A stretch of 64,000 bases of DNA from Bacillota bacterium (lineage in GTDB: Bacteria > Bacillota > Dethiobacteria > DTU022 > UBA8154): NCBI GenBank assembly GCA_012728375.1, contig JAAYFF010000025.1:13741-77740 (forward strand). The letters are read 5' to 3'. The number at the start of each line of letters is the position of its first letter. Position 1 is the first letter of the stretch. Shown here piece after piece: positions 816-17,220 of the stretch. A program made the position numbers and the translations under genes. A model generated the notes under the pieces. It was given only the letters and a program-made list of their open reading frames with translations. It ran no database searches and was not told the origin of the DNA.

Positions 816-2195
816 ATGCCTTTATTTAAGCTTCCTGGTTTAAGCAAATGTGTGGGACTGGGAGAACGGGAAATTGTCTCTGCTTACGGCGCAGGTGGGA
901 AAACATCTTTTCTTTTGCGCCTGGCGGAGGAGCTTTCACAAGAAAACAAAAAGGTTATCTTGACGACGACTACCCATATCCTCCCTCCCCGGAACTTTCC
1001 CCTGGTCATCACTTCAGATTTCGCTGAAGCAAGGAGAAAACTTCAAAGTTATTTGCAGCGCGATAACGTTGTTGCGTTGGGAAGCGCTATGCTTCCCGGC
1101 GATAAAGTAAAGGGGATAGAGGCCGCCTGGGTTGACGAGTTTTTTTCCGAGGGTTTGGCTCCATATATACTTGTGGAAGCGGACGGAGCGGCAAGGCGGC
1201 CCATCAAGGGGTATGCTCCGTATGAGCCCGTTATTCCTCAATCTTCGACAACTATAGTTCCTGTGCTTGGAGCCGATGCTTTAGGATTGCCTATTGAGGC
1301 GGGCTTTGTCCACCGGCCGGAACTGCTGGTCCATCAGATCGGTGCCGCGGAGGGCGGGCTGATTGGAACGGATCATTTTATCCGCTGCCTCTTCTTTATG
1401 CTTGAGAGGGGCAGGAGGCAGGCTCCATCTGCCCGGGCGGTTCCTGTTGTCAATAAAGCGGACCTAATGAAAGATAAGGAACTGCTTTATGCTGTTGTCG
1501 GAGCCTTTTCCGCCTCTTCCCTGTCGGGTGTGTCACGCCTGCTTTTTACAGCCCTTTCAGAAGAATTCCCCGTACAATATATATGGGGGAAGCCTTTTTT
1601 AAAACCGTTCGTTTCCTGTGCAATTCTTAGCGCGGGTTTTTCCAGAAGGATGGGGGAAGACAAGCTGTCTCTCCGCTTTGGAGAGAAAACTATACTTGAG
1701 CATGCTGTGGGAAATGCCCTGCAAGGCGGTGCAGACGAAATATTTATTGTTACCCGTCCTGAACAGGAATGGGTGGAAAAACTTTTCTCCGGGGACAAGA
1801 TCAGGGTCGTAAAGAATCCTTTTTCAGCGCAGGGAATGTCCACCTCCATAAAAGCTGCCATCAGTGCTTGCAACCCTCTTGCCCAAGGGGTTATTTTTGC
1901 CCTGGGCGACCAGCCGTTTATTGACCCGGAGGTTTACCGGGCCTTAATCAAAAACTACAGTAGGAATTTAAATCTGGTTACTTATCCTTTATTTCAGGGA
2001 AAAAAAGGTAACCCCCAGATTTTTGACCGCAGAACCTGGCCACTACTATTGACCCTCCAGGGCGACCGTGGAGGCAGAGGAATTATTCCTTTGCTTCCGG
2101 AGGGGGAGATTCGGGGAGTGGAAACGCCTTTTCCCGGTGTTACCGTTGATATCGATACTGCGGAAGAATATATGAAATACCGGCCCCCGGAGTAA
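816..2195 (+). CDS. Fusion protein: YqeC-family selenium-dependent molybdenum-hydroxylase accessory domain (N-terminal) + MobA/MocA-like molybdenum-cofactor nucleotidyltransferase domain (C-terminal)
   Basis: 459-aa ORF. The N-terminal half has a P-loop-like GAGGKTSFL and ILVEADGA pattern typical of YqeC (TIGR03172-like). The C-terminal half (AGFSRRMGEDKL...IFALGDQPFI) looks like a MobA-like NTP transferase. A hairpin, CCGGAG-TAA-CTCCGG, overlaps the stop codon. Confidence 0.55.
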   Translation: MPLFKLPGLSKCVGLGEREIVSAYGAGGKTSFLLRLAEELSQENKKVILTTTTHILPPRNFPLVITSDFAEARRKLQSYLQRDNVVALGSAMLPGDKVKGIEAAWVDEFFSEGLAPYILVEADGAARRPIKGYAPYEPVIPQSSTTIVPVLGADALGLPIEAGFVHRPELLVHQIGAAEGGLIGTDHFIRCLFFMLERGRRQAPSARAVPVVNKADLMKDKELLYAVVGAFSASSLSGVSRLLFTALSEEFPVQYIWGKPFLKPFVSCAILSAGFSRRMGEDKLSLRFGEKTILEHAVGNALQGGADEIFIVTRPEQEWVEKLFSGDKIRVVKNPFSAQGMSTSIKAAISACNPLAQGVIFALGDQPFIDPEVYRALIKNYSRNLNLVTYPLFQGKKGNPQIFDRRTWPLLLTLQGDRGGRGIIPLLPEGEIRGVETPFPGVTVDIDTAEEYMKYRPPE

Positions 2196-2282
2196 CTCCG
2201 GATAGATTAAAAACTTGCAACTTTTTATGTTTTTTTGCACCGATATTTTTATTTTCTGGAAAAAGGGTTTTTTACAGAGAGA

Positions 2283-2306
2283 GTCGAATTAAAAAAGTGG
2301 ACATGA
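2283..2306. promoter_or_regulatory. Conserved element copy 1 (GTCGAATTAAAAAAGTGGACATGA), upstream of the sigma-54 activator gene and overlapping a sigma-70-like TGGACA-N15-TATAAT (2298-2324)
   Basis: It matches 4499-4523 at 18 of 19 positions and lies 55 bp upstream of ATG 2360. Confidence 0.35.
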
Positions 2307-2359
2307 AAAAGAAATATTTATAATATGTGTTAAATATTTTAACGAGGTTTAATTGCGCA

Positions 2360-4294
2360 ATGAAAAAAGCCCGCATAGTTATGATTTCCCCCCTTCCCGA
2401 GTTAACCAGGCTTGCCCGGCAGATTTCCAGGGAGCAAAATTTTAAACTGGAGATCGTGGAAGCTTTTCTGGATAAGGGAGTGGAAAAGGGCAAAAGGTTC
2501 GAACAGGCGGGTGCGGATGTAATTATCAGCCGCGGTCCCACGGGCGTGCTCCTCAAAAGAGAACTTTCCATTCCCGTTGTTTTAATCCAGATGACCAATT
2601 TTGATATTATTCGCGCTCTCTACCAGGCCAAGCAGTTAGGCCGGAAAATAGCTTATTTTGACCACATTAAGTGCAAGGAAATTTATGATTTTAAAATGAT
2701 CGATGAAATCCTTTCCCTGGAGGACCTGAGCTTTTTCTTTTACCGGGACGAAAGGGAGCTTGAAGCGCAGATACAGAGAGCGCAGGATGAAGGGGTAGAA
2801 GTTATTGTCGCCTCGGGTATTTGCATTCTGCGCATGGCCAAAATCCGCGGCATGAAGGGCGTGATGGCCTTTCCCTCCCGGGAAGCCGTTATTGAAGCCC
2901 TGCAGTGGGCCCAGGATGTTGTGCGCATGCGCGAAAAGGACCGGGAGAAAGCGGAATTTCTTAAAACCATTATTGATCATACATACACAGGCGTTATTGC
3001 CGTAAATAAAAAAGGTGAAGTAACACATTTCAACCGTTCTGCAGAAGAAATTTTCAAAGTTTCCCGCAATGATGCGGTTGGCAAAAAGGTGGAGAACCTG
3101 CCGATTCCCCTGCTGAAAATTTTTTACCAGGCCTCCGGGGAGGGGAAAGAGGAGGTACATAAAATCGGGGGTAAGCAAATCCTCTTTCACCGTATTCCCA
3201 TTTACATCGACAATGAGAAACACGGGACAGTCATTACCTTCCAGAGCGTTCACAAGATTCAGAACCTCGAGGCTACCATCCGCAAGAAACTCCATAGCAG
3301 CGGCCTTGTTTCACGCTACACCTTTAATCATCTCGTCGGCTCCTCACCGGAAATGGTAAAAACAATAAACCGTGCCAAAAAATTTGCAGCTTCCGGTTCA
3401 ACAGTTTTAATTATCGGGGAAAGCGGTACCGGAAAAGAGCTTTTTGCCCATAGCATTCACGCTGAGAGTCCTCGTCGCGAAGGACCGTTCGTGGCTATTA
3501 ACTGCGCCAGTATTCCCAAAGAATTGCTGGAAAGCGAGCTCTTTGGTTATGAAGAGGGCTCGTTTACAGGAGCCAAGAAAGGCGGGAAAATAGGGCTTTT
3601 TGAGCTTGCACACGGCGGAACGATTTTCCTGGACGAGATATCTGAGCTCTCTCCCCCTCTGCAGCTAAATCTGTTGCGGGTTCTCCAGGAAAAAGTGGTG
3701 CGCCGCATCGGCGGGGAACGGATTATTCCTGTAGATGTGAGGGTGCTCGCCGCCACAAACCGTTTTTTAGCCGGGGAAGTAAAAAAGGGGAATTTTCGGG
3801 AAGATCTTTTTTTCCGCCTTAATGTTTTAAACTTGCATATCCCTCCTTTGCGGCAGCGTAGAGATGATATTCCCCTTTTGATTGAACATTTTTGCAGGAA
3901 GTATAGGGGGAGCAGGAGCGGCAGCGAAGAATTCCCTCCCTCCATTATTCGCTATCTTTGTGAATATGACTGGCCGGGCAATGTCCGGGAGCTGGAAAAT
4001 TTCATTGAAAAATATGTTTTTCTTTCCGAAGAGGGTGCGGATAATTTTCGTTTAATTGAGGAACTGGTTGATGAGCTTTACCGCTACAGGGAAGACGAGC
4101 AGGGTCTCGTGCCGGCCGGAGAACAATATTTAACTATTGGTGTAGGAAAGATGGAAGATATGGAGAGGCAAATTATTGAAAAGCTTTATAAACAGAGCAA
4201 GCGGGACAAGAAGGATCTGGCCCGGCAGCTTGGAATCAGCCGCACGACTCTCTGGAAAAAATTAAAAAGCATTGAATCCGGTTCTGTGAAGTAG
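2360..4294 (+). CDS. Sigma-54-dependent transcriptional activator, PrpR-like (PrpR_N sensor, PAS, AAA+ sigma-54 interaction domain, Fis-type HTH)
   Basis: Walker A GESGTGKE, a GAFTGA-type loop (EEGSFTGA), ELENFIE, and a C-terminal HTH (DLARQLGISRTTLWKKLK). The N-terminus is PrpR_N-like. ATG 2360 (MKKARIVMIS) is preferred over the track start 2327. Confidence 0.9.
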   Translation: MKKARIVMISPLPELTRLARQISREQNFKLEIVEAFLDKGVEKGKRFEQAGADVIISRGPTGVLLKRELSIPVVLIQMTNFDIIRALYQAKQLGRKIAYFDHIKCKEIYDFKMIDEILSLEDLSFFFYRDERELEAQIQRAQDEGVEVIVASGICILRMAKIRGMKGVMAFPSREAVIEALQWAQDVVRMREKDREKAEFLKTIIDHTYTGVIAVNKKGEVTHFNRSAEEIFKVSRNDAVGKKVENLPIPLLKIFYQASGEGKEEVHKIGGKQILFHRIPIYIDNEKHGTVITFQSVHKIQNLEATIRKKLHSSGLVSRYTFNHLVGSSPEMVKTINRAKKFAASGSTVLIIGESGTGKELFAHSIHAESPRREGPFVAINCASIPKELLESELFGYEEGSFTGAKKGGKIGLFELAHGGTIFLDEISELSPPLQLNLLRVLQEKVVRRIGGERIIPVDVRVLAATNRFLAGEVKKGNFREDLFFRLNVLNLHIPPLRQRRDDIPLLIEHFCRKYRGSRSGSEEFPPSIIRYLCEYDWPGNVRELENFIEKYVFLSEEGADNFRLIEELVDELYRYREDEQGLVPAGEQYLTIGVGKMEDMERQIIEKLYKQSKRDKKDLARQLGISRTTLWKKLKSIESGSVK

Positions 4295-4330: not shown

Positions 4331-4346
4331 TGGCATATAAATTGCA
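4331..4346 (+). promoter_or_regulatory. Sigma-54 (-24/-12) promoter: TGGCAT-N5-TTGCA
   Basis: tTGGCATataaaTTGCAtat matches the consensus TGGCAC-N5-TTGCW, with GG and GC 10 nt apart. It lies immediately downstream of the activator gene and upstream of the thiolase operon. Confidence 0.55.
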
Positions 4347-4498
4347 TATTTTCATTAATAGTAGACAAATTCCCCTTTTATAAAAATCTGGGTTTAACAT
4401 ATAAAAGCCCTGTTTAGTAGATAATTTGTAGGCTTATCAAGGAAAGGCATAAGGAATAAAAGAAAGGGGGGTTAAAAAAGTAAACATTGTTTCCGCGT

Positions 4499-4523
4499 GT
4501 CCAGTTAAAAAAATGGACATGAC
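4499..4523. promoter_or_regulatory. Conserved element copy 2: inverted repeat GTCCA-N10-TGGAC containing TTAAAAAAATGGACATGA (candidate activator-binding site / UAS)
   Basis: Near-identical to 2289-2306. It sits between the sigma-54 promoter (4331) and the thiolase start (4674). Confidence 0.4.
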
Positions 4524-4673
4524 TTCTCGCCAAAGCCGGAAATCAAGACGCTTATCAAGGCTTAAAAGGGAAGAGGAGGCATTATTTTTCAGTAAAAGAT
4601 GGGGTTAGGTTTTTGCATCTATAAAAAAATAGAAGGGAGGAAGTCCCGAAAGTGAACGCTTTCGGGGAAACAA

Positions 4674-5855
4674 ATGAAAAACCCAGTAATTGTAAGTGCC
4701 GTAAGGACTATCGCCGGCAGCTTTGGCGGCAGCTTAAAGAGCAAGACCGCTGCTGATCTGGGAGCAGCAGTTGTTGCCGAAGCTGTTAAGAGGGCGGGGA
4801 TCTCTCCTGAGGATGTGGATCAGTTAATTTTCGGTTGCGGTTGGCAGGCGGGAATTGGCCCGAATATTGCCCGTATCTGTGCTGTTCGGGGAGGGCTTCC
4901 TCACAAAGTGCCCGCCTATACAGTCAACATTCGTTGCGCTTCCAGCCTTCAGGCGATTATTGACGGATGCCGGTCCATTATGTGCGGCGATAATAATGTG
5001 TTGGTTGTGGGCGGTACCGAATCCGGTTCCAACGTTCCCTTCCTGATTCCCCAGGCCCGCTGGGGCGCCCGCATGTGGGATTTCCCCGTTTATGACGGTT
5101 TGCACTATGATGGTTTTAAGTGTATGCTGGCAGGAATGTTTATGGGCAATACCGCTGAACTCCTGGCAGAGAAATACAACATCAGCCGGCAGGAGCAGGA
5201 CGAATTTGCCCTGTGGAGCCATCAGAAAGCAGCGAAAGCTGTTGCTGAAGACAAATTCAGGGATGAAATTGTTCCCATTGAAGTTACCCAAAAGAAGAAG
5301 ACAGTGATCGTGGATCAGGAAGAAATTCCCCGGGCCGATGCTTCGTTGGAAAAAATGCTCAAGTTGCCCCCGGTATTTAAAAAAGACGGCACGGTAACGG
5401 CCGGCAATAGCTGCGCACTCTGCGACTGTGCATCCGCCCTGGTGATTATGTCTGAAGAAAGAGCTAAGTCCCTGGGAGTTACACCTATCGCCCGCATTGT
5501 GAGTTATGCTGAAGCAGGGGTAGATCCCATGTACATGGGAATTGGCCCGGTTGCCGCCATTCCTAAAGCCCTGGAAAGAGCCGGACTGAAGCTGGATGAT
5601 ATCGATCTCATTGAGTTAAACGAAGCTTTTGCCGCCCAGTATTTAGCCTGTGAAAGGGAACTGAAATTTAACCGGGAGAAAATTAATATCCACGGCGGAG
5701 CCATCGCCCTTGGTCACCCTGTGGGGGCCACCGGTACCAAACTCGTTACCACCAACCTCAATACCCTGAAACAATATGGCAAGACCCTTGGCATGACCAG
5801 CATGTGCGTGGGCGGCGGCCAGGGATTGGCTGTCATCGTAGAAAGATTAAACTAG
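4674..5855 (+). CDS. Acetyl-CoA acetyltransferase (thiolase)
   Basis: MKNPVIVSAVRTIAGSFGG... The thiolase active-site regions are present (NIRCASSLQAI, GNSCALCDCASALVIM, GHPVGATG). 393 aa. Confidence 0.9.
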   Translation: MKNPVIVSAVRTIAGSFGGSLKSKTAADLGAAVVAEAVKRAGISPEDVDQLIFGCGWQAGIGPNIARICAVRGGLPHKVPAYTVNIRCASSLQAIIDGCRSIMCGDNNVLVVGGTESGSNVPFLIPQARWGARMWDFPVYDGLHYDGFKCMLAGMFMGNTAELLAEKYNISRQEQDEFALWSHQKAAKAVAEDKFRDEIVPIEVTQKKKTVIVDQEEIPRADASLEKMLKLPPVFKKDGTVTAGNSCALCDCASALVIMSEERAKSLGVTPIARIVSYAEAGVDPMYMGIGPVAAIPKALERAGLKLDDIDLIELNEAFAAQYLACERELKFNREKINIHGGAIALGHPVGATGTKLVTTNLNTLKQYGKTLGMTSMCVGGGQGLAVIVERLN

Positions 5856-5908
5856 GCTCTTGTATATTTTAATCATATAAATAAAAGTATTTGAGAGGAG
5901 GAAATTTT

Positions 5909-6793
5909 ATGGATATTAAAAAAGTATTTGTTCTGGGTGCCGGGATCATGGGTACAGGTATTGCGCACCTTTGTGCCCAGCAGGGATTGAACGTTGTCCT
6001 TGTTGATATTAACGAGGATATCCTCAAGCGCAGCATTAGCAATATCGAGGGGATCCTGAACAAGAGAGTCGAGAAGGGTAAAATAACTGCCGATGCAGCC
6101 AAAGAACTTGTCGGACGGATTAAAACTTCCACCGATAAAAAAGAAGCTGCCGGCTGCGATTTCGTTATTGAAGCGGTTACTGAAAATGTCAAGCTCAAGC
6201 AACAATTATTCGCCGAGCTTGACGAGATCGTTCCCGCAGGGATAATTCTTGCCACCAATACGACCGCCTGTTCCATTTCTGAGGTTGCTTCCGCAACCAA
6301 GGATCCAAGCCGGGTAATCGGAATGCACTTCTTCAATCCCGCAGTGGTCATGAAACTGGTGGAAATTATGCCCGGCCTGGCGACTAAACCTGAAGTTGCT
6401 GCGACAACCAAGGAACTCGTTGAGTTTTTAGGCAAAGAACCCGTTGTAACCGCCAAGGAAGGGATTGCCGGGATCGCCAGCCGCGTCCTGGCCGGTATGT
6501 TGAATGAAGCGGTTTGGGTGTTGGAAGAAGGGATCGGTACAGCCGCGGATATCGATAAGGCTATGAAGATGGGCTCCAATCTGCCCATGGGTCCCCTGGC
6601 GCTCATCGATATGATTGGAATCGATACCCACCTGGCCAAAACCAGAACCCTTTATGAAAAGCTGGGCGATGCCCGTTACCGTCCCTGCTACCTCCTGGAG
6701 AAAATGGTTCATGCCGGTTATCTGGGACGCAAATCAGGGAAAGGTTTCTATGATTACAGCCAGGATCCGCCCGTGCCCACAGTGTTAAGATAA
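5909..6793 (+). CDS. hbd: 3-hydroxybutyryl-CoA dehydrogenase
   Basis: [20 protein letters not shown] carries a Rossmann GxGxxG. The 3HCDH N and C domains are recognisable. RBS GAGAGGAGG precedes ATG 5909 (the track start TTG 5891 is rejected). Confidence 0.9.
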
Positions 6794-6906
6794 GTGCGGG
6801 TATAACGCGATACGCGAAAAACTTAAATTTTGAAAAATGCTGTTTTTGCAGGCTTGAGCCGGCGGCCAAGCTTTCAGAAAGGGCGAAAAAAAAAGGAGGT
6901 TATTTT

Positions 6907-8061
6907 ATGGATTTTGAACTGAATTCCGAACAACTGGCAGTGCAAAAGATGGTCCGCGAATTTGTTGAAAAAGAGATTACCCCCAATGCCAAGCAATGGG
7001 ACCTTGATGAGAAGTTCCCCATGGACACATGGAAGAAGATGGGCGATCTCGGAATTATCGGTACATCCATCCCCGAAGAATACGATGGTAGCGGAATGGA
7101 TTTCATCTCCCACGCTATTGTCGCGGAAGAGCTTGGTTACGGATGCTCCTCCATGCGGGGTTCTTATTCCGTGAATATCTCTCTGGTGGCCAAGACCATT
7201 TTGAAGTGGGGAACCGAAGAACAAAAGAAAAAGTACGTCCCCCCCATTGCCCGGGGAGAAGCTTTTGGCTGCTACGGCCTTACCGAGCCGGATTCGGGAA
7301 GCGATGCCGCCAGCTTGAAAAGTGTCGCGGAAAAGGATGGGGATTATTATATCCTCAACGGCAACAAAATGTGGATTACCCATGCCAATATGGCTGATGT
7401 TTCTCTTATTTTTGCCAAAACGGATAAAGATGCCGGAGCAAAGGGTATTACCTGCTTCCTGGTGGACAAAGGTACTCCTGGTATGAACCCGCAGCCCATT
7501 CATGAAAAGATCGGTCTTCGCGCCCAGGATACCGGCGAGATTTACATGGAGAACGTGCGCGTCCACAAGGACCAAATTTTGGGACCAATCGGCAAAGGTT
7601 TTGCCGTTGCCATGTCAGCTCTCGATAATGCACGTTTCACTGTTGCTGCAGGTTGCGTAGGCACCGCGCAGGCTGCTTACGATATTGCCAAGGCCCATGC
7701 CAAGGAAAGGGTTCAGTTTGGCAAAGTGATCGCCAGCCGTCAGCTTGTCCAGTCATTGCTGGCCAACATGATTCTGAATATAGAACTGGGCCGGATGCTC
7801 GTTTGGAGGGCCGGCTGGCTGAAGAATAAAGGAGTTCCCAATACCCGTGAGACCTCCATGGCCAAGTATTTCTGCGGCGAAATGGTTAACAAGGTTTGTT
7901 ATGATGCTATGCAGATACTGGGAGGCTACAGCTTCTCGGGCGAATATGCCCTGGAAAGAATGTACCGCGATTCCCGCATCAATACCCTTTACGAAGGCAC
8001 ATCCCAGATCCAGCAACTGATTATCGGCAATGCCGAGCTGGGAATTCCTGCTTTTGCATAA
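6907..8061 (+). CDS. bcd: Acyl-CoA dehydrogenase (short-chain/butyryl-CoA dehydrogenase type)
   Basis: 384 aa. ACAD N, M and C domains, with the catalytic-Glu context near the C-terminus (YEGTSQIQQLIIG). RBS AAAGGAGG. Confidence 0.9.
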   Translation: MDFELNSEQLAVQKMVREFVEKEITPNAKQWDLDEKFPMDTWKKMGDLGIIGTSIPEEYDGSGMDFISHAIVAEELGYGCSSMRGSYSVNISLVAKTILKWGTEEQKKKYVPPIARGEAFGCYGLTEPDSGSDAASLKSVAEKDGDYYILNGNKMWITHANMADVSLIFAKTDKDAGAKGITCFLVDKGTPGMNPQPIHEKIGLRAQDTGEIYMENVRVHKDQILGPIGKGFAVAMSALDNARFTVAAGCVGTAQAAYDIAKAHAKERVQFGKVIASRQLVQSLLANMILNIELGRMLVWRAGWLKNKGVPNTRETSMAKYFCGEMVNKVCYDAMQILGGYSFSGEYALERMYRDSRINTLYEGTSQIQQLIIGNAELGIPAFA

Positions 8062-8094
8062 AAGGCGAGAATTGTTATAAACTATTTCTAAAAG

Positions 8095-8153
8095 TATGGG
8101 GAAGGGGGAAAGGGAATTATCCCTTCCTCCATCCCCATTTTTTGTTACTTAGA
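8095..8153 (+). terminator. Long imperfect GC-rich hairpin followed by TTTTTTG (possible attenuator/terminator between bcd and crt)
   Basis: ATGGGGAAGGGGGAAAGGGAAttaTCCCTTCCTCCATCCCCAT, then tttttg. Confidence 0.35.
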
Positions 8154-8177
8154 CTTTAAAAAAGAGGAGGTATGGAG

Positions 8178-8957
8178 ATGTACCAGTTTATTAAATATGA
8201 AAAAGAAGCGCCTCTGGCGATTATTACCGTTAATCGCCCGGAAGTCATGAATGCTATGAATAATGCCCTTGTGGAAGAGTTTGCCCAGGCCTTTAAAGAA
8301 GCGGAAAATGACGATGAAGTAAGAGCGCTGATTATAACCGGGGAAGGCAACAAGGCTTTCATGGCCGGTGCGGATATCAAGGAAGTACAGGCTAGAGACT
8401 TTGTTCTGGGGCGCAAACAGACCCGCAGGCGCCAGGAAGTATTAAACATGCTGTATGAAATGCCCAAGCCCGTAATCGCCGCTATTAACGGATTTGCCCT
8501 CGGGGCCGGCTTGGAGACGGCACTGGCCTGCACACTGCGCATTGCCTCTACCAACGCCAAACTGGGCGCTCCGGAAGTAAACCTGGGGATTATTCCCGGC
8601 GACGGTGCCACCCAGCGTCTTCCGAGAATGATTGGCTTTGGCCGTGCAATGGAGATGGTTTTAACGGCGCGTATGGTGGATGCCGAAGAGGCCTACCGCA
8701 TCGGGCTGGTAAACAAGGTGGTGCCCCAGGAAGAATTAATGGAAGAAGCTAAAAAAATGGCCGGCAGCATTATCAACAAATCGCCTCTGGCCATCCAGTA
8801 CGCCAAGGAAGCAGTCAACCGCTCCATGGAAATGGGTCTTTATGAAGGAATGGCCCATGAGTCTTACCTCCACGCCCTGGCCTGTGCCACGGAGGATAAG
8901 AAAGAAGGAGTTGCCGCATTCCTGGAGAAGCGTAAAGCCCAGTATCAAGGGAAATAA
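8178..8957 (+). CDS. crt: Enoyl-CoA hydratase (crotonase family)
   Basis: The crotonase fold is recognisable (LAIITVNRPEVMNAMN, FMAGADIKE, ING-A-GAGLETALACTLRIA). RBS GAGGAGG at 8164-8170 favours ATG 8178 over 8172. Confidence 0.9.
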   Translation: MYQFIKYEKEAPLAIITVNRPEVMNAMNNALVEEFAQAFKEAENDDEVRALIITGEGNKAFMAGADIKEVQARDFVLGRKQTRRRQEVLNMLYEMPKPVIAAINGFALGAGLETALACTLRIASTNAKLGAPEVNLGIIPGDGATQRLPRMIGFGRAMEMVLTARMVDAEEAYRIGLVNKVVPQEELMEEAKKMAGSIINKSPLAIQYAKEAVNRSMEMGLYEGMAHESYLHALACATEDKKEGVAAFLEKRKAQYQGK

Positions 8958-14331: not shown

Positions 14332-17220
14332 TCAATGCCCTGGAGCTTCATCCCCTGATAACCCGTAGTTTTGGGAGAGTATGTTCAGATCAAGGTTATT
14401 AACAAAACCGTCACCGTTCAGGTCGGCAAGAGAATTCCAGTTTTTATCGCCGGGTTTGGTAAAATAAGCCAGGGATAAGAGGGAGAGGTCCGTCAGATCG
14501 ATTTTGTTGTCGTTGTTCAGATCCCCTGCTAGCATCTTGATGGGGCCCAGGTTAATAAACTTTTGTTTTTCCCACAGCTCTATCCCAATTACTTTTGTAA
14601 GATGCTGTCTGCTGCTTATCACTAGCAAATAAGAGCCCAGGGGAAGGTTAAGGTCAAAAGAACCGTCTTTGGCAAAAGATGTAACGGGAAAGATTTCTTT
14701 AGTGTCACGGCAGATAAAACGGGCGGAGATCCTTTCTCCGTTTAATGATGGCTTTCCCTGGAGCTGTATTGTCCCGGTGATACGGGTTCCTTTTTTGATT
14801 ATGTAGGAAAACTCCGAGACAGGCCCTGGAATGGTGCCCAAGTAGGTCCGGGTTTTTAAGATGCTCGTTTTGTCGATGACAATGGGTCTTTCATAGACGG
14901 TGCTTTTTTCATGGGGATCGGTGCCGTCAAGGGTATAGGTTATTTTTTCTCCGCTGCCCGCCTGCAAGCTGATCTCAACCGTATTGATATATGTTCCCGG
15001 GTCGGGATGGGGGACGGCAGGTTTTATCTCCACGACGGCAATCTTAAATTCTGCAGATTTGTCGTTAAACGTTCCCCGGATAATACTTTCTCCCGGAGCA
15101 AGACCTGTAATGACGCCATTTTCAACCCGGGCAACGGCCGGATTGGATGAATGCCAGGTTACCAGCTCAGGTTGGATTTCTTTAAGTATGCGGGAAGAAA
15201 ACATGGCCTCTGCCCTTACAGCGGTTTCCTCACCCAGGGCTATTTTTGTTTTTTCCGGCGTTAGCCTGAGGCGATCGAGAGCCCTTAATGGCAGCGGATA
15301 CGCTTTAAGCGTCAGATCATCAATGTGCCATCCCATTCCTGAACCGTTATTATCGCTCTGAATCCGAAAACGGAGATAGAGGGAATTCGCTTCCCCCGGA
15401 CAGCTGAGGGGAATGGAAAAAGGTTCAAGTTTGCCGTTGCTTCCTGAAAAACGGTAGAGGATGGACCAGTTAATGCCGTCAACGGAAATTTCTACATAAG
15501 CATAGTCTTCACTGTCTTCGGTTTTTGCGAGGCCATAACAATGTTGAAAAAAAAGGACAGGGCTGTGGTATCCGTCTAGGAGGATAGGTTTTGCCGTAGC
15601 AATCCAGGAAGACGTATTGTTATTATAATCTTCCCATGGAGAGTCGGCAAAGGAAAATCTTCCGCTTCCCGCCAGTTCCCTGGTAATTTTCCAGGGGGTT
15701 TCCGGAGAGGTTTTCCAGTTAATGATTCCTTCTTCCGCACCGTCAAAAAAAAGAAGCTCCGGCGGCATGAGAGGCTCGTGTTTAACTGCGGCGTAAACGT
15801 CCGGAAGGCCGTAACCATAAACATTATTGGGACGGGAGCCGGAATTGTCCCAGAGGGGATCCCAAAAGGAAGTACTTTTTAGAAGGTATTTTATCTCTGC
15901 TGGGGAAAGATCGGGCTTGGCCCCCAGCAGAAGGGCAGCTGCTCCGGAAAGGTGAGCTGCTGCTGTGGATGTGCCGTCCTGGATAGCGTATTTTTTGCCG
16001 GGCCAGGTGGAAACGATATTTACGCCCGGTGCAACCAAGTCCGGTTTTATGTAAGAAATATCCTGCCAGCGAACAGGACCCTTGCTGCTGAAATTTGCTG
16101 CTTCAAAGCGGTCGCCCGCCTGTTTAAGGGCGCCTGCACAAAAAGAGTGGGGGTAACTGGCCGGGCTGCCGGGGCCTTCCTCACCGTTGTTGCCGGAGGC
16201 AAAAATTACCGTAATGCCAGCTTTTTCTAAAGTATATAAAATATCCCAATGAAGGAAATCTTCTGCAAATTCAGGTCTTGATGCCCAGGAACAATTGATG
16301 ATGTCCGGGGCATGATCGGGGTTCCCCCCGGGGGCAAGAAGCCATTGAAAGGCCAGGGCGATATGAGAATCCCAGGCATATCCATCGGAAAAGATGTTGA
16401 CGGCAATCCAGCGCGCTCCCGGCGCAATGCCCAGCGGCTTTTCTTTGCTGCCGCCCACGATAATCCCGGTAATATGGGTGCCGTGGCCGTGTGTATCTAC
16501 GGGCCCTTCCGCAGAGTTGGGTAGGGTTCCCGTGGCGTCGAACCAGCTGTCTTTATGGCTGTGGCCCGGGAGATTGCCGCGGTAATTTTGTTCCAGGTCG
16601 GGATGGTTCAGGTCTACCCCCGTATCCATAACGGCAACGACGACACCGTCCCCAAAATAACCTTCCTTCCAAAGGGGGGGTACATTTATAGCCTGCAGAT
16701 TAAAAAGATCTTTGCCTCTGCCGGGGAATTCATCCAAGAACATGCTTGCCTGAAAGACAGCCCGTTCCGGTTTGGAAACAGCGGAGAGGTAGCCGCGGCG
16801 ATGATCCAGGGTGATTGTTTTTATCTGGGGAAGTGCGCAGAGGCGTTTTAAGCCTTCTTTATTTATCTGTGCTGAGAAAGCGTTGATTACCCATAGGGAT
16901 TTGTAGCCGCGAAGGTTTCCATTGGCAGTTTCTTCTTTTAAAATGGGGAGTATTTCTTCCTCAGCAACTTTATTTGCCCTTTGTAATTCTTCAACTGCCG
17001 CACGCCCTGAAGCGGCCTTCATATCGGCAGGATCTTGCCCGGGGAGGGCCTTTTTTTTGAAAAAGGCAATGACAGGGACAAACGGTTCGGAGTCCAGGTA
17101 TTGTAAAACTTCGGGAGAGACGGTATTTTCTGTGTTTTTACCCAGGCAGTAAGTGAAAGGGTTAACAAGAAAAAATGTGATAAGAATTAGAATAGCCGGT
17201 GTTCTAACCTGCTTTAACAT
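14332..17220 (-). CDS. Secreted subtilisin-family (S8) serine protease with Big_2 and Fn3/CHB_HEX_C-like domains and a C-terminal type-I dockerin
   Basis: Signal peptide. The D/H/S triad is present (VMDTGVD, HGTHITG, GTSTAAAHLSGAAALL). The C-terminal DLNNDNKIDLTDLSLL...DLNGDGFVNNLDLNIL tandem Ca-binding repeats are dockerin-like. Confidence 0.85.
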   Translation of the reverse strand: MLKQVRTPAILILITFFLVNPFTYCLGKNTENTVSPEVLQYLDSEPFVPVIAFFKKKALPGQDPADMKAASGRAAVEELQRANKVAEEEILPILKEETANGNLRGYKSLWVINAFSAQINKEGLKRLCALPQIKTITLDHRRGYLSAVSKPERAVFQASMFLDEFPGRGKDLFNLQAINVPPLWKEGYFGDGVVVAVMDTGVDLNHPDLEQNYRGNLPGHSHKDSWFDATGTLPNSAEGPVDTHGHGTHITGIIVGGSKEKPLGIAPGARWIAVNIFSDGYAWDSHIALAFQWLLAPGGNPDHAPDIINCSWASRPEFAEDFLHWDILYTLEKAGITVIFASGNNGEEGPGSPASYPHSFCAGALKQAGDRFEAANFSSKGPVRWQDISYIKPDLVAPGVNIVSTWPGKKYAIQDGTSTAAAHLSGAAALLLGAKPDLSPAEIKYLLKSTSFWDPLWDNSGSRPNNVYGYGLPDVYAAVKHEPLMPPELLFFDGAEEGIINWKTSPETPWKITRELAGSGRFSFADSPWEDYNNNTSSWIATAKPILLDGYHSPVLFFQHCYGLAKTEDSEDYAYVEISVDGINWSILYRFSGSNGKLEPFSIPLSCPGEANSLYLRFRIQSDNNGSGMGWHIDDLTLKAYPLPLRALDRLRLTPEKTKIALGEETAVRAEAMFSSRILKEIQPELVTWHSSNPAVARVENGVITGLAPGESIIRGTFNDKSAEFKIAVVEIKPAVPHPDPGTYINTVEISLQAGSGEKITYTLDGTDPHEKSTVYERPIVIDKTSILKTRTYLGTIPGPVSEFSYIIKKGTRITGTIQLQGKPSLNGERISARFICRDTKEIFPVTSFAKDGSFDLNLPLGSYLLVISSRQHLTKVIGIELWEKQKFINLGPIKMLAGDLNNDNKIDLTDLSLLSLAYFTKPGDKNWNSLADLNGDGFVNNLDLNILSQNYGLSGDEAPGH

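Follow-up and report, generated by a model that had tools for sequence, protein, structure and literature searches.

A very probable sigma-54 promoter ahead of a butyryl-CoA operon in Dethiobacteria, with predicted activator sites downstream of it in a long leader

Enhancers that lie downstream of a sigma-54 promoter are rare but have precedents. The rocG gene of Bacillus subtilis, the subject of work by Belitsky and Sonenshein in 1999, reportedly has a natural SigL (sigma-54) promoter with its RocR enhancer downstream; this element is said to be located some 1.5 kb off, past the coding region, and to be shared with the next operon. The flagellar promoters of Caulobacter reportedly have downstream elements (ftr2 and ftr3) and a 3′ enhancer roughly 100 bp past the start, and the flagellar activator is said to repress at other sites as well. 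Here we describe a predicted sigma-54 promoter at 4331–4346 of a 64-kb stretch of DNA from a member of the Dethiobacteria (contig JAAYFF010000025.1, positions 13,741–77,740; the whole stretch is called the window). Judged from comparison of sequences, this promoter very probably drives a thiolase/butyryl-CoA operon, and the predicted sites of its activator lie downstream of it, inside the leader.

In Clostridium, sigma-54 and the enhancer-binding protein (EBP) CrbR have been predicted to control butyryl-CoA genes (PMC6615313). The CrbR sites, TGT-N10-12-ACA, precede the sigma-54 promoters of crt/hbd/thl/bcd operons; counted from the start codon they lie at −133 to −344, most of those in the study being 100–250 bp upstream, and the promoters lie at −41 to −255, with the site always upstream of the promoter (PMC6615313). 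Leaders can be long there as well, as promoters are found as far from the start codon as −255 and −324 (PMC6615313). A sigma-54 regulon of butyryl-CoA genes is thus not new in itself, since it had already been predicted in clostridia, and the length of a leader alone is not unusual, given the clostridial promoters at −255 and −324.

The genes and the promoter of the window locus were as follows, the operon functions being assigned from Pfam.

2360–4294, + strand: sigma-54 enhancer-binding protein of 644 amino acids (the activator), with PrpR_N, PAS, Sigma54_activat (AAA+, GSFTGA), AAA-lid and HTH_8
4331–4346, + strand: predicted sigma-54 (−24/−12) promoter TGGCATATAAATTGCA, unique in the window, core conserved, tracking the GAFTGA loop of the activator; predicted start at about 4357
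4674–8957, + strand: target operon, in the same gene order after the activator in all orthologous loci
4674–5855, + strand: thiolase, ATG at 4674
5891–6793, + strand: 3-hydroxyacyl-CoA dehydrogenase (hbd)
6907–8061, + strand: acyl-CoA dehydrogenase (acd)
8172–8957, + strand: crotonase (crt)

The activator has all the class features of a bacterial EBP, namely an AAA+ domain, a Walker A motif (GESGTGKE), a GAFTGA-type loop (GSFTGA) and, at the C terminus, a helix-turn-helix (HTH) of the Fis type. Its Pfam matches included Sigma54_activat (PF00158, 1.2e-67), PrpR_N (3e-35) and HTH_8 (PF02954, 2.2e-07), and it scored below the NCBIfam equivalog cut-offs for PrdR (403 vs 795) and PrpR (397.5 vs 499.2). 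The supplement of Nie et al. 2019 (PMC6615313) gives the variant GSFTGA for one more EBP of the PrpR_N-PAS kind. The activator stop codon is at 4292–4294, which leaves a gap of 379 nt to the thiolase gene; no terminator was found between the two genes in the window.

An earlier note on this DNA had placed TGGCAT-N5-TTGCA at 4331–4346, right after the activator gene, and this element is present as described: TGGCAT-ATAAA-TTGCA begins 37 nt past the activator stop and 343 nt ahead of the thiolase ATG. TGGCATATAAATTGCA agrees with 10 of the 11 consensus positions (TGGCAC-N5-TTGCW, with GG and GC 10 nt apart) and is the sole exact match to TGGCAY-N5-TTGCW in 64 kb (0.15 expected); with one mismatch allowed the window held 3 matches vs 4.3 expected. 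Because at least one exact match was also reached in 13 of 100 shuffled windows, the match alone is not significant, and it is placement together with conservation that makes it so. Counting from the GC at 4344–4345, transcription is predicted to start at about 4357. The leader of about 340 nt that had been proposed is indeed long, and about 300 nt of leader length is conserved, but its length from the predicted start is about 317 nt.

Conservation was judged over 15 Dethiobacteria loci, the window and 14 retrieved orthologous loci. The ortholog group from the protein search (P0001–P0029) was 62–95% identical to the activator, the next proteins falling to about 50%. A genome scan supplied only two close loci, the nearest genome being a Dethiobacter alkaliphilus metagenome-assembled genome with an activator 90% identical. 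A metagenome scan with the activator alignment gave only distant EBPs (≤45% identity), because the peptide patterns chosen were generic; it was the source of loci L014, L017 and L018 described below. Wherever the flanks of an ortholog were covered, the order (hisG)-activator-thiolase-hbd-acd-(crt) was uniform, with 126–441 nt from activator stop to thiolase start.

As for the promoter, seven of the 15 intergenic regions, those of the window, L001, L006, L009, L094, L095 and L096, contain TGGCA-N6-TTGCA in the + orientation; its distance from the activator stop is 10–90 nt and that to the thiolase start 298–386 nt. When these seven loci were lined up on the promoter over a frame of 96 nt, the ten bases of TGGCA and TTGCA were the only invariant columns, and the 40-nt flanks showed 25% and 29% pairwise identity, which is the random level. 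The element was also the only match scoring at least 10/11 in each of the six other promoter-bearing loci (6–14 kb each). L012, L013 and L097 also have matches scoring at least 10/11; these fall within coding sequence, at homologous places of the activator, thiolase, hbd and acd genes, and were set aside as probable coding coincidences; those that recur in promoter-less loci are in acd (L012 8569, L013 8581, L097 8572) and hbd (L013 6885, L097 6880).

The promoter was kept or lost together with the GAFTGA loop of the activator. GAFTGA is the loop that contacts sigma-54 (e.g. references in PMC5095919). In each of the seven promoter-bearing loci the loop reads G[AS]FTGA and Walker A is intact (GESGTGKE; GDSGTGKE in L006), and a degenerate loop was encoded by every promoter-less locus with a full-length gene (7/7): GAFSGA in L008, GTFTGV in L010 and L098, GAFSGT in L011, DDLADT in L012, GVFSGT in L013 and GVFTGA in L097. 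Two of these have Walker changes as well (GEKGSGRK in L098, FLNEITAL in L013). Fisher's test gave p = 0.0006, uncorrected (7/0 vs 0/7), and the count of independent events is a more honest measure than this p value. On a neighbour-joining tree the promoter-less loci fell at no fewer than four separate positions, with L008 beside L006, L013 and L097 beside L095, L010 with L098, and L011 with L012. A fifth case is L002, from which the promoter has gone and in which the activator (1994–3203) appears to be a pseudogene or a misassembly: tblastn recovered residues 1–64, 188–386 and 485–644 in two frames, and residues 65–187 and 387–484 were absent. Alignments of sister loci showed deletions spanning the promoter. 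Since 58 of the 59 loops parsed from the next-closest homologs are GAFTGA, the degenerate loop is the derived state.

GAFTGA thus decayed exactly where the promoter is missing, which ties the promoter to the adjacent activator. These comparisons make it highly probable that the promoter at 4331–4346 is functional and dependent on that activator. Sigma-54 control of the thiolase-hbd-acyl-CoA dehydrogenase-crotonase cassette, as the note had proposed, is supported by a core present in seven orthologous loci and lost with GAFTGA. Conservation in orthologous intergenic regions had been named as the test for both of its candidate GG/GC elements; the 4331 element was conserved in 7/15 loci, but the one at 4603–4617 in none.

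Downstream of the promoter, a palindrome, TGTCCAGTTAAAAAAATGGACA, at 4498–4519 was unique in the window (0 expected). It contains a 15-bp quasi-palindrome with an AT-rich N5, GTTWA-N5-TKAAC, here called boxA, copies of which also lie at the promoter of the activator gene.

4471–4485, no strand assigned: boxA1 GTTAAAAAAGTAAAC, predicted activator site, centre at +121, conserved in L001 and L002
4504–4518, no strand assigned: boxA2 GTTAAAAAAATGGAC, predicted activator site, centre at +154, within 4498–4519, its distance of 33 bp from boxA1 being the same in L001 and L002
2264–2291, + strand: SigH-like promoter AGGGTTT-N12-GTCGAATTA of the activator gene, the only AGGRTTY-N12-RNNGAATTW match in the window (0.05 expected)
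2288–2302, no strand assigned: boxA-like ATTAAAAAAGTGGAC, overlapping −10/+1 of the activator promoter, in 15/15 loci, 88% identical over 24 nt to 4499–4522
2329–2343, no strand assigned: boxA GTTAAATATTTTAAC in the activator gene 5′ region, a 10/10 motif match, at the same place in 15/15 loci

The pattern GTTNA-N5-TDRAC gave 10 strand matches (6 sites) in the window vs 1.96 expected, and none of 100 shuffles reached 10. Three of the six sites are in regulatory regions (2329, 4471 and 4504); those at 15469, 42795 and 46087 are isolated inside coding regions and were taken as chance. No ortholog conserves the boxA look-alikes (4050 and 4067) that fall within the activator gene's 3′ end. An independent repeat search put 2278–2304, 4461–4487 and 4494–4520 into one family. 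A candidate activator site downstream of the promoter, inside the leader, had been noticed from the window sequence alone; as a sequence element it is real and is conserved across the promoter-bearing orthologs. The palindrome assigned to 4499–4523 is there, but it is now refined to one of two tandem boxA copies of a motif found at the activator's promoter too.

The leaders of the seven promoter-bearing loci carry 2–3 tandem boxA copies with centres at +91 to +181 of the predicted start. Together these loci have 20 boxA sites at +75 to +200 and none at −300 to −75. The first copy starts 95–130 bp past the promoter, the intervening sequence being unconserved (110 nt between promoter and boxA1 in the comparison of the window with L001), and the second follows after 32–33 bp, about three helical turns; a third lies 28–29 or 40 bp beyond. 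These leaders thus show the multiple dyad sites, whole-turn spacing and distance of 80–250 bp from the promoter that mark an enhancer (upstream activator sequence, UAS); an upstream location, between −300 and −75, is absent from the seven loci and present in the homologs L014, L017 and L018. In promoter-less loci the leader cluster has decayed to 0–1 copy and the pair at the activator's own promoter persists. The exception is L002, where the promoter is deleted and boxA1 and boxA2 are still intact.

Four orthologs (L001 7948–7962, L006 5433–5447, L009 5436–5450 and L096 2285–2299) have a further copy, boxA0, which reads GTTCAATAATTAAAC or nearly so. It lies at −38 to −73 of the predicted start, either over the activator stop or just behind it, so some loci have boxA on both sides of the promoter. 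No such copy occurs in the window. The leader copies were also considered as SigH promoters and rejected, as they have no suitably spaced AGGAWWW and do not retain GAAT.

The canonical layout was found in more distant homologs. L014 (45% identity) and L017 and L018 (38%) share the domain architecture of the window activator and have a recognition helix, LGISRTTLWKK, identical to its own. The same type of palindrome lies upstream of their own sigma-54 promoters, between −91 and −137: GTTTAAAAAATAAAC at −137 in L014, GTTCATAAATTAAAC at −113 and GTTTATTATTTGAAC at −92 in L018, and copies at −113 and −91 in L017. Their leaders are about 50–60 nt. Since the palindrome lies upstream in these relatives, boxA acts there as a normal upstream activator sequence; in the lineage of the window it is found at the mirror-image distance, on the downstream side.

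On balance, and with moderate confidence, we favour a conserved downstream enhancer, in which the 4331 promoter would be activated from the boxA sites of the leader. The sigma-54 holoenzyme (Esigma54) would form a closed complex at 4331–4346, and dimers of the PrpR_N-PAS-AAA+-HTH protein would bind boxA1 and boxA2 (and boxA3 in other species). On sensing a ligand through PrpR_N/PAS, the dimers would oligomerise into an active ring, which would loop back over about 100–150 bp and open the closed complex by ATP hydrolysis, so that transcription would begin at about 4357, pass over the enhancer and go on into the operon. Most of the long leader would then be enhancer DNA and spacer, with a conserved translation-initiation module behind them, and an enhancer placed inside the leader would therefore account for its length of about 317 nt. 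We infer that boxA is the site of the activator because the same motif goes with the same recognition helix in the homologs, because copies lie at the activator's own promoter and because the cluster decays with GAFTGA; looping from downstream, the sensing of a ligand and autorepression are likewise proposed. Three dimer sites in tandem would suit the building of a hexamer; NorR, which has three enhancer sites, is reported to assemble in this way (PMC2831303). Between the two arrangements that the note had left open, the comparison decides for the 4331 promoter with downstream sites.

The SigH-like promoter of the activator gene was at the same place in 15/15 orthologous loci and exact in 8; the consensus used for 2264–2291 is what we take to be that of B. 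subtilis SigH. Its position ahead of the activator gene suggests that the activator is expressed at transition or stationary phase. Two boxA copies lie at this promoter in 15/15 loci, the second about 40 bp further downstream, and from their placement (2288–2343) the activator probably represses its own SigH-like promoter. In L008, L010–L013, L097 and L098, whose activators have a degenerate loop, the HTH is still there, as is the pair of boxA sites at the activator's own promoter.

The 3′ part of the leader holds two further features.

4601–4617, + strand: boxB GGGGTTAGGTTT with a −24/−12 look-alike (gGGtta-ggttt-TTGCA, 4602–4617), not a sigma-54 promoter
4635–4666, + strand: Shine-Dalgarno (SD) sequence GGGAGG (4635–4640), then hairpin arms 4645–4652 and 4659–4666, in 15/15 loci

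BoxB is a purine-rich block, GGGGTTAGGTT(T) or GGAGGTTGGGG, conserved in most orthologs, including loci with a degenerate GAFTGA; it lies at 4601–4612 in the window and about 60–75 nt before the thiolase start in L006, L008, L009, L010, L013, L095, L097 and L098. As a sigma-54 promoter it lacks a GC at −12, and by eye it fits neither a SigB nor a sigma-A promoter and matches no promoter consensus. A leader peptide read from 4600 (ATGGGGTTAGG...) was rejected, its frame and stop being unconserved in L001, L002 and the other loci. Directly after the last boxA, at about −120 from the start codon, L006, L008, L010, L011, L013, L094, L095, L097 and L098 carry GYGRGGTGATGC, the window counterpart being GAGGAGG at 4573–4579. 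GYGRGGTGATGC, which is distant from all start codons, agrees with the extended complement of the anti-Shine-Dalgarno sequence (AGGTGAT); it may be an SD-like element that stabilises the mRNA, or a proximal transcript may begin there. The hairpin behind the SD sequence is stable and ends 7 nt before the ATG; over the 15 loci, compensatory changes occur in 5 of its 7 predicted pairs, with loop lengths of 3–29 nt. Folding would cut the distance from SD to start from 33 to about 11 nt, so translation of the thiolase may depend on the hairpin.

Several points weigh against a downstream enhancer. Taken by itself, an exact promoter match would turn up by chance in 13% of shuffled windows. Single deletions may have taken out promoter and sites together, in which case the joint loss of boxA1 and boxA2 would be incidental. 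With boxA0 at −38 to −73, sites flank the promoter in four orthologs. An activator bound at +90 to +180 would stand in the way of the very polymerase that it activates. Promoter-less loci retain the last boxA and what lies downstream of it, which points to an additional, sigma-54-independent role, for example as an operator or a proximal promoter. A rather unlikely alternative is that the 4331 promoter is real and dependent on the adjacent activator but has no enhancer in the leader cluster. The cluster would then be an operator or roadblock that keeps transcripts of the activator gene from reading through, or that governs a proximal promoter not dependent on sigma-54; the activator would act from solution, or while bound at boxA0 or at the sites some 2 kb upstream. 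This reading would agree with the lack of a terminator between the activator and thiolase genes, with the retention of the last boxA copy, GYGRGGTGATGC and boxB where promoter and GAFTGA are lost, with boxA0 just upstream of the promoter in four loci, and with the repressor-like position of the own-promoter boxA over −10/+1. However, neither the leader nor the short intergenic regions of the promoter-less loci yielded a promoter in scans with sigma-70 consensus sequences, and the window has no boxA0. The number of sites, their three-turn spacing and their distance of 95–130 bp suit an enhancer, and boxA1 and boxA2 are absent where the promoter is absent, L002 excepted. An operator or roadblock function is compatible with a dual role of the cluster.

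The remaining explanations fared worse. If the palindromes acted as RNA hairpins of a regulatory leader that a ligand or an RNA-binding protein recognises, the length of the leader would make sense, as would its folding better than shuffles (z = −3.26) with the palindrome hairpin in the minimum-free-energy structure. We regard this as very improbable. Rfam gave no match in the leader at gathering or permissive thresholds, nor any family match across the whole window; the motif recurs in non-transcribed DNA upstream of the homologs' sigma-54 promoters and at the activator's promoter; what is conserved is the half-site sequence with its AT-rich spacer, not pairing; and the 110 nt from promoter to boxA1 are unconserved between the window and L001. 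Slightly less probable still is that 4603–4617 is the functional sigma-54 promoter, with the palindromes some 100 bp upstream as its canonically placed activator sites and 4331 silent. The sequence that the note had given for this weaker candidate is present, with GG-N10-GC and TTGCA at a canonical distance from boxA and the conserved boxB overlapping its −24 half. Yet the −24 half lacks CA, and the −12 TTGCA exists in the window only: it reads AACAA in L001 (activator 90% identical) and ATGTA in L002, and no other locus has GC in register. As TTGCA is lost even in these closest relatives, the candidate was rejected as a promoter. Moreover, boxB persists where the activator has lost GAFTGA, and the loop is tracked by the 4331 element, not by 4603–4617. 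Least probable of all is a functionless chance occurrence at 4331. Shuffled windows do yield such matches, but not in a 379-nt gap right after an activator gene with a core that is invariant in seven diverged loci and lost with GAFTGA.

A wider proposal, possible but on the whole doubtful, would join the downstream enhancer and the roadblock. In a Dethiobacteria lineage-wide inverted sigma-54 architecture, the activator ring would sit on leader DNA at +90 to +180, serving without inducer as a roadblock against SigH-driven read-through and with inducer as an enhancer; deletion of the promoter module would repeatedly have made the activator a sigma-54-independent regulator.

Among the neighbouring genes, T-box leaders (99–102 bits, above the gathering score) were found in L006 (434–721), L010 (511–789) and L013 (171–490). 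They precede a PALP-domain gene two genes upstream of the activator; the equivalent position in the window holds a YqeC/MobA-like gene.

What would be new here is a conserved natural enhancer, predicted about 100–180 bp downstream of its promoter and inside the leader. The close homologs with the same recognition helix and an upstream layout offer a matched pair for studying effects of position on looping and the passage of polymerase past its own activator. New as well is the comparative link of one promoter to one activator, through promoter deletion and GAFTGA decay in at least four lineages, and with it a glimpse of sigma-54 activators turning into sigma-54-independent regulators. In practical terms, a motif, a start site and a regulator are predicted for a central carbon pathway in an alkaliphilic group rich in uncultured members.

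Compared with the known systems, the locus resembles that of CrbR in its sigma-54 promoter, adjacent EBP, multiple AT-rich palindromes and butyryl-CoA cassette, and the CrbR site TGTAAAAAAATGAACA is compositionally very similar to GTTAAAAAAATGGACA at 4504–4519 of the window. Unlike CrbR, the order of site and promoter is inverted, the core is GTTWA-N5-TKAAC, the cassette is without etfAB, and the host is Dethiobacter, outside Clostridiales; the likeness is thus one of operon content and site composition. The domain architecture of the activator is shared with PrpR of prpBCDE and other PrpR_N-type EBPs. Whereas L014, L017 and L018 have palindromes at −91 to −137 and short leaders, the window sites are downstream and its leader is about 317 nt.

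TyrR and Rhodobacter capsulatus NtrC are sigma-54-independent relatives of EBPs, and the promoter-less orthologs are like them: AAA+ and HTH are kept and the GAFTGA consensus is lost, as in the TyrR type. It looks as if a sigma-54 activator has repeatedly been turned into a regulator that works without sigma-54; in contrast to those two proteins, the loss here is recent, has recurred within one ortholog group and came each time with deletion of the cognate promoter. The locus is like the Caulobacter flagellar promoters in having predicted sigma-54 enhancers about 100 bp downstream of the start, but those belong to flagellar genes of a proteobacterial host, with a response-regulator-type activator and the involvement of IHF. 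With rocG it shares a Firmicute sigma-54 promoter and, on the favoured reading, a downstream enhancer; unlike that of rocG, the predicted sites in the lineage of the window lie at +91 to +181, within the 5′ leader of their own operon, and are dedicated to that one operon.

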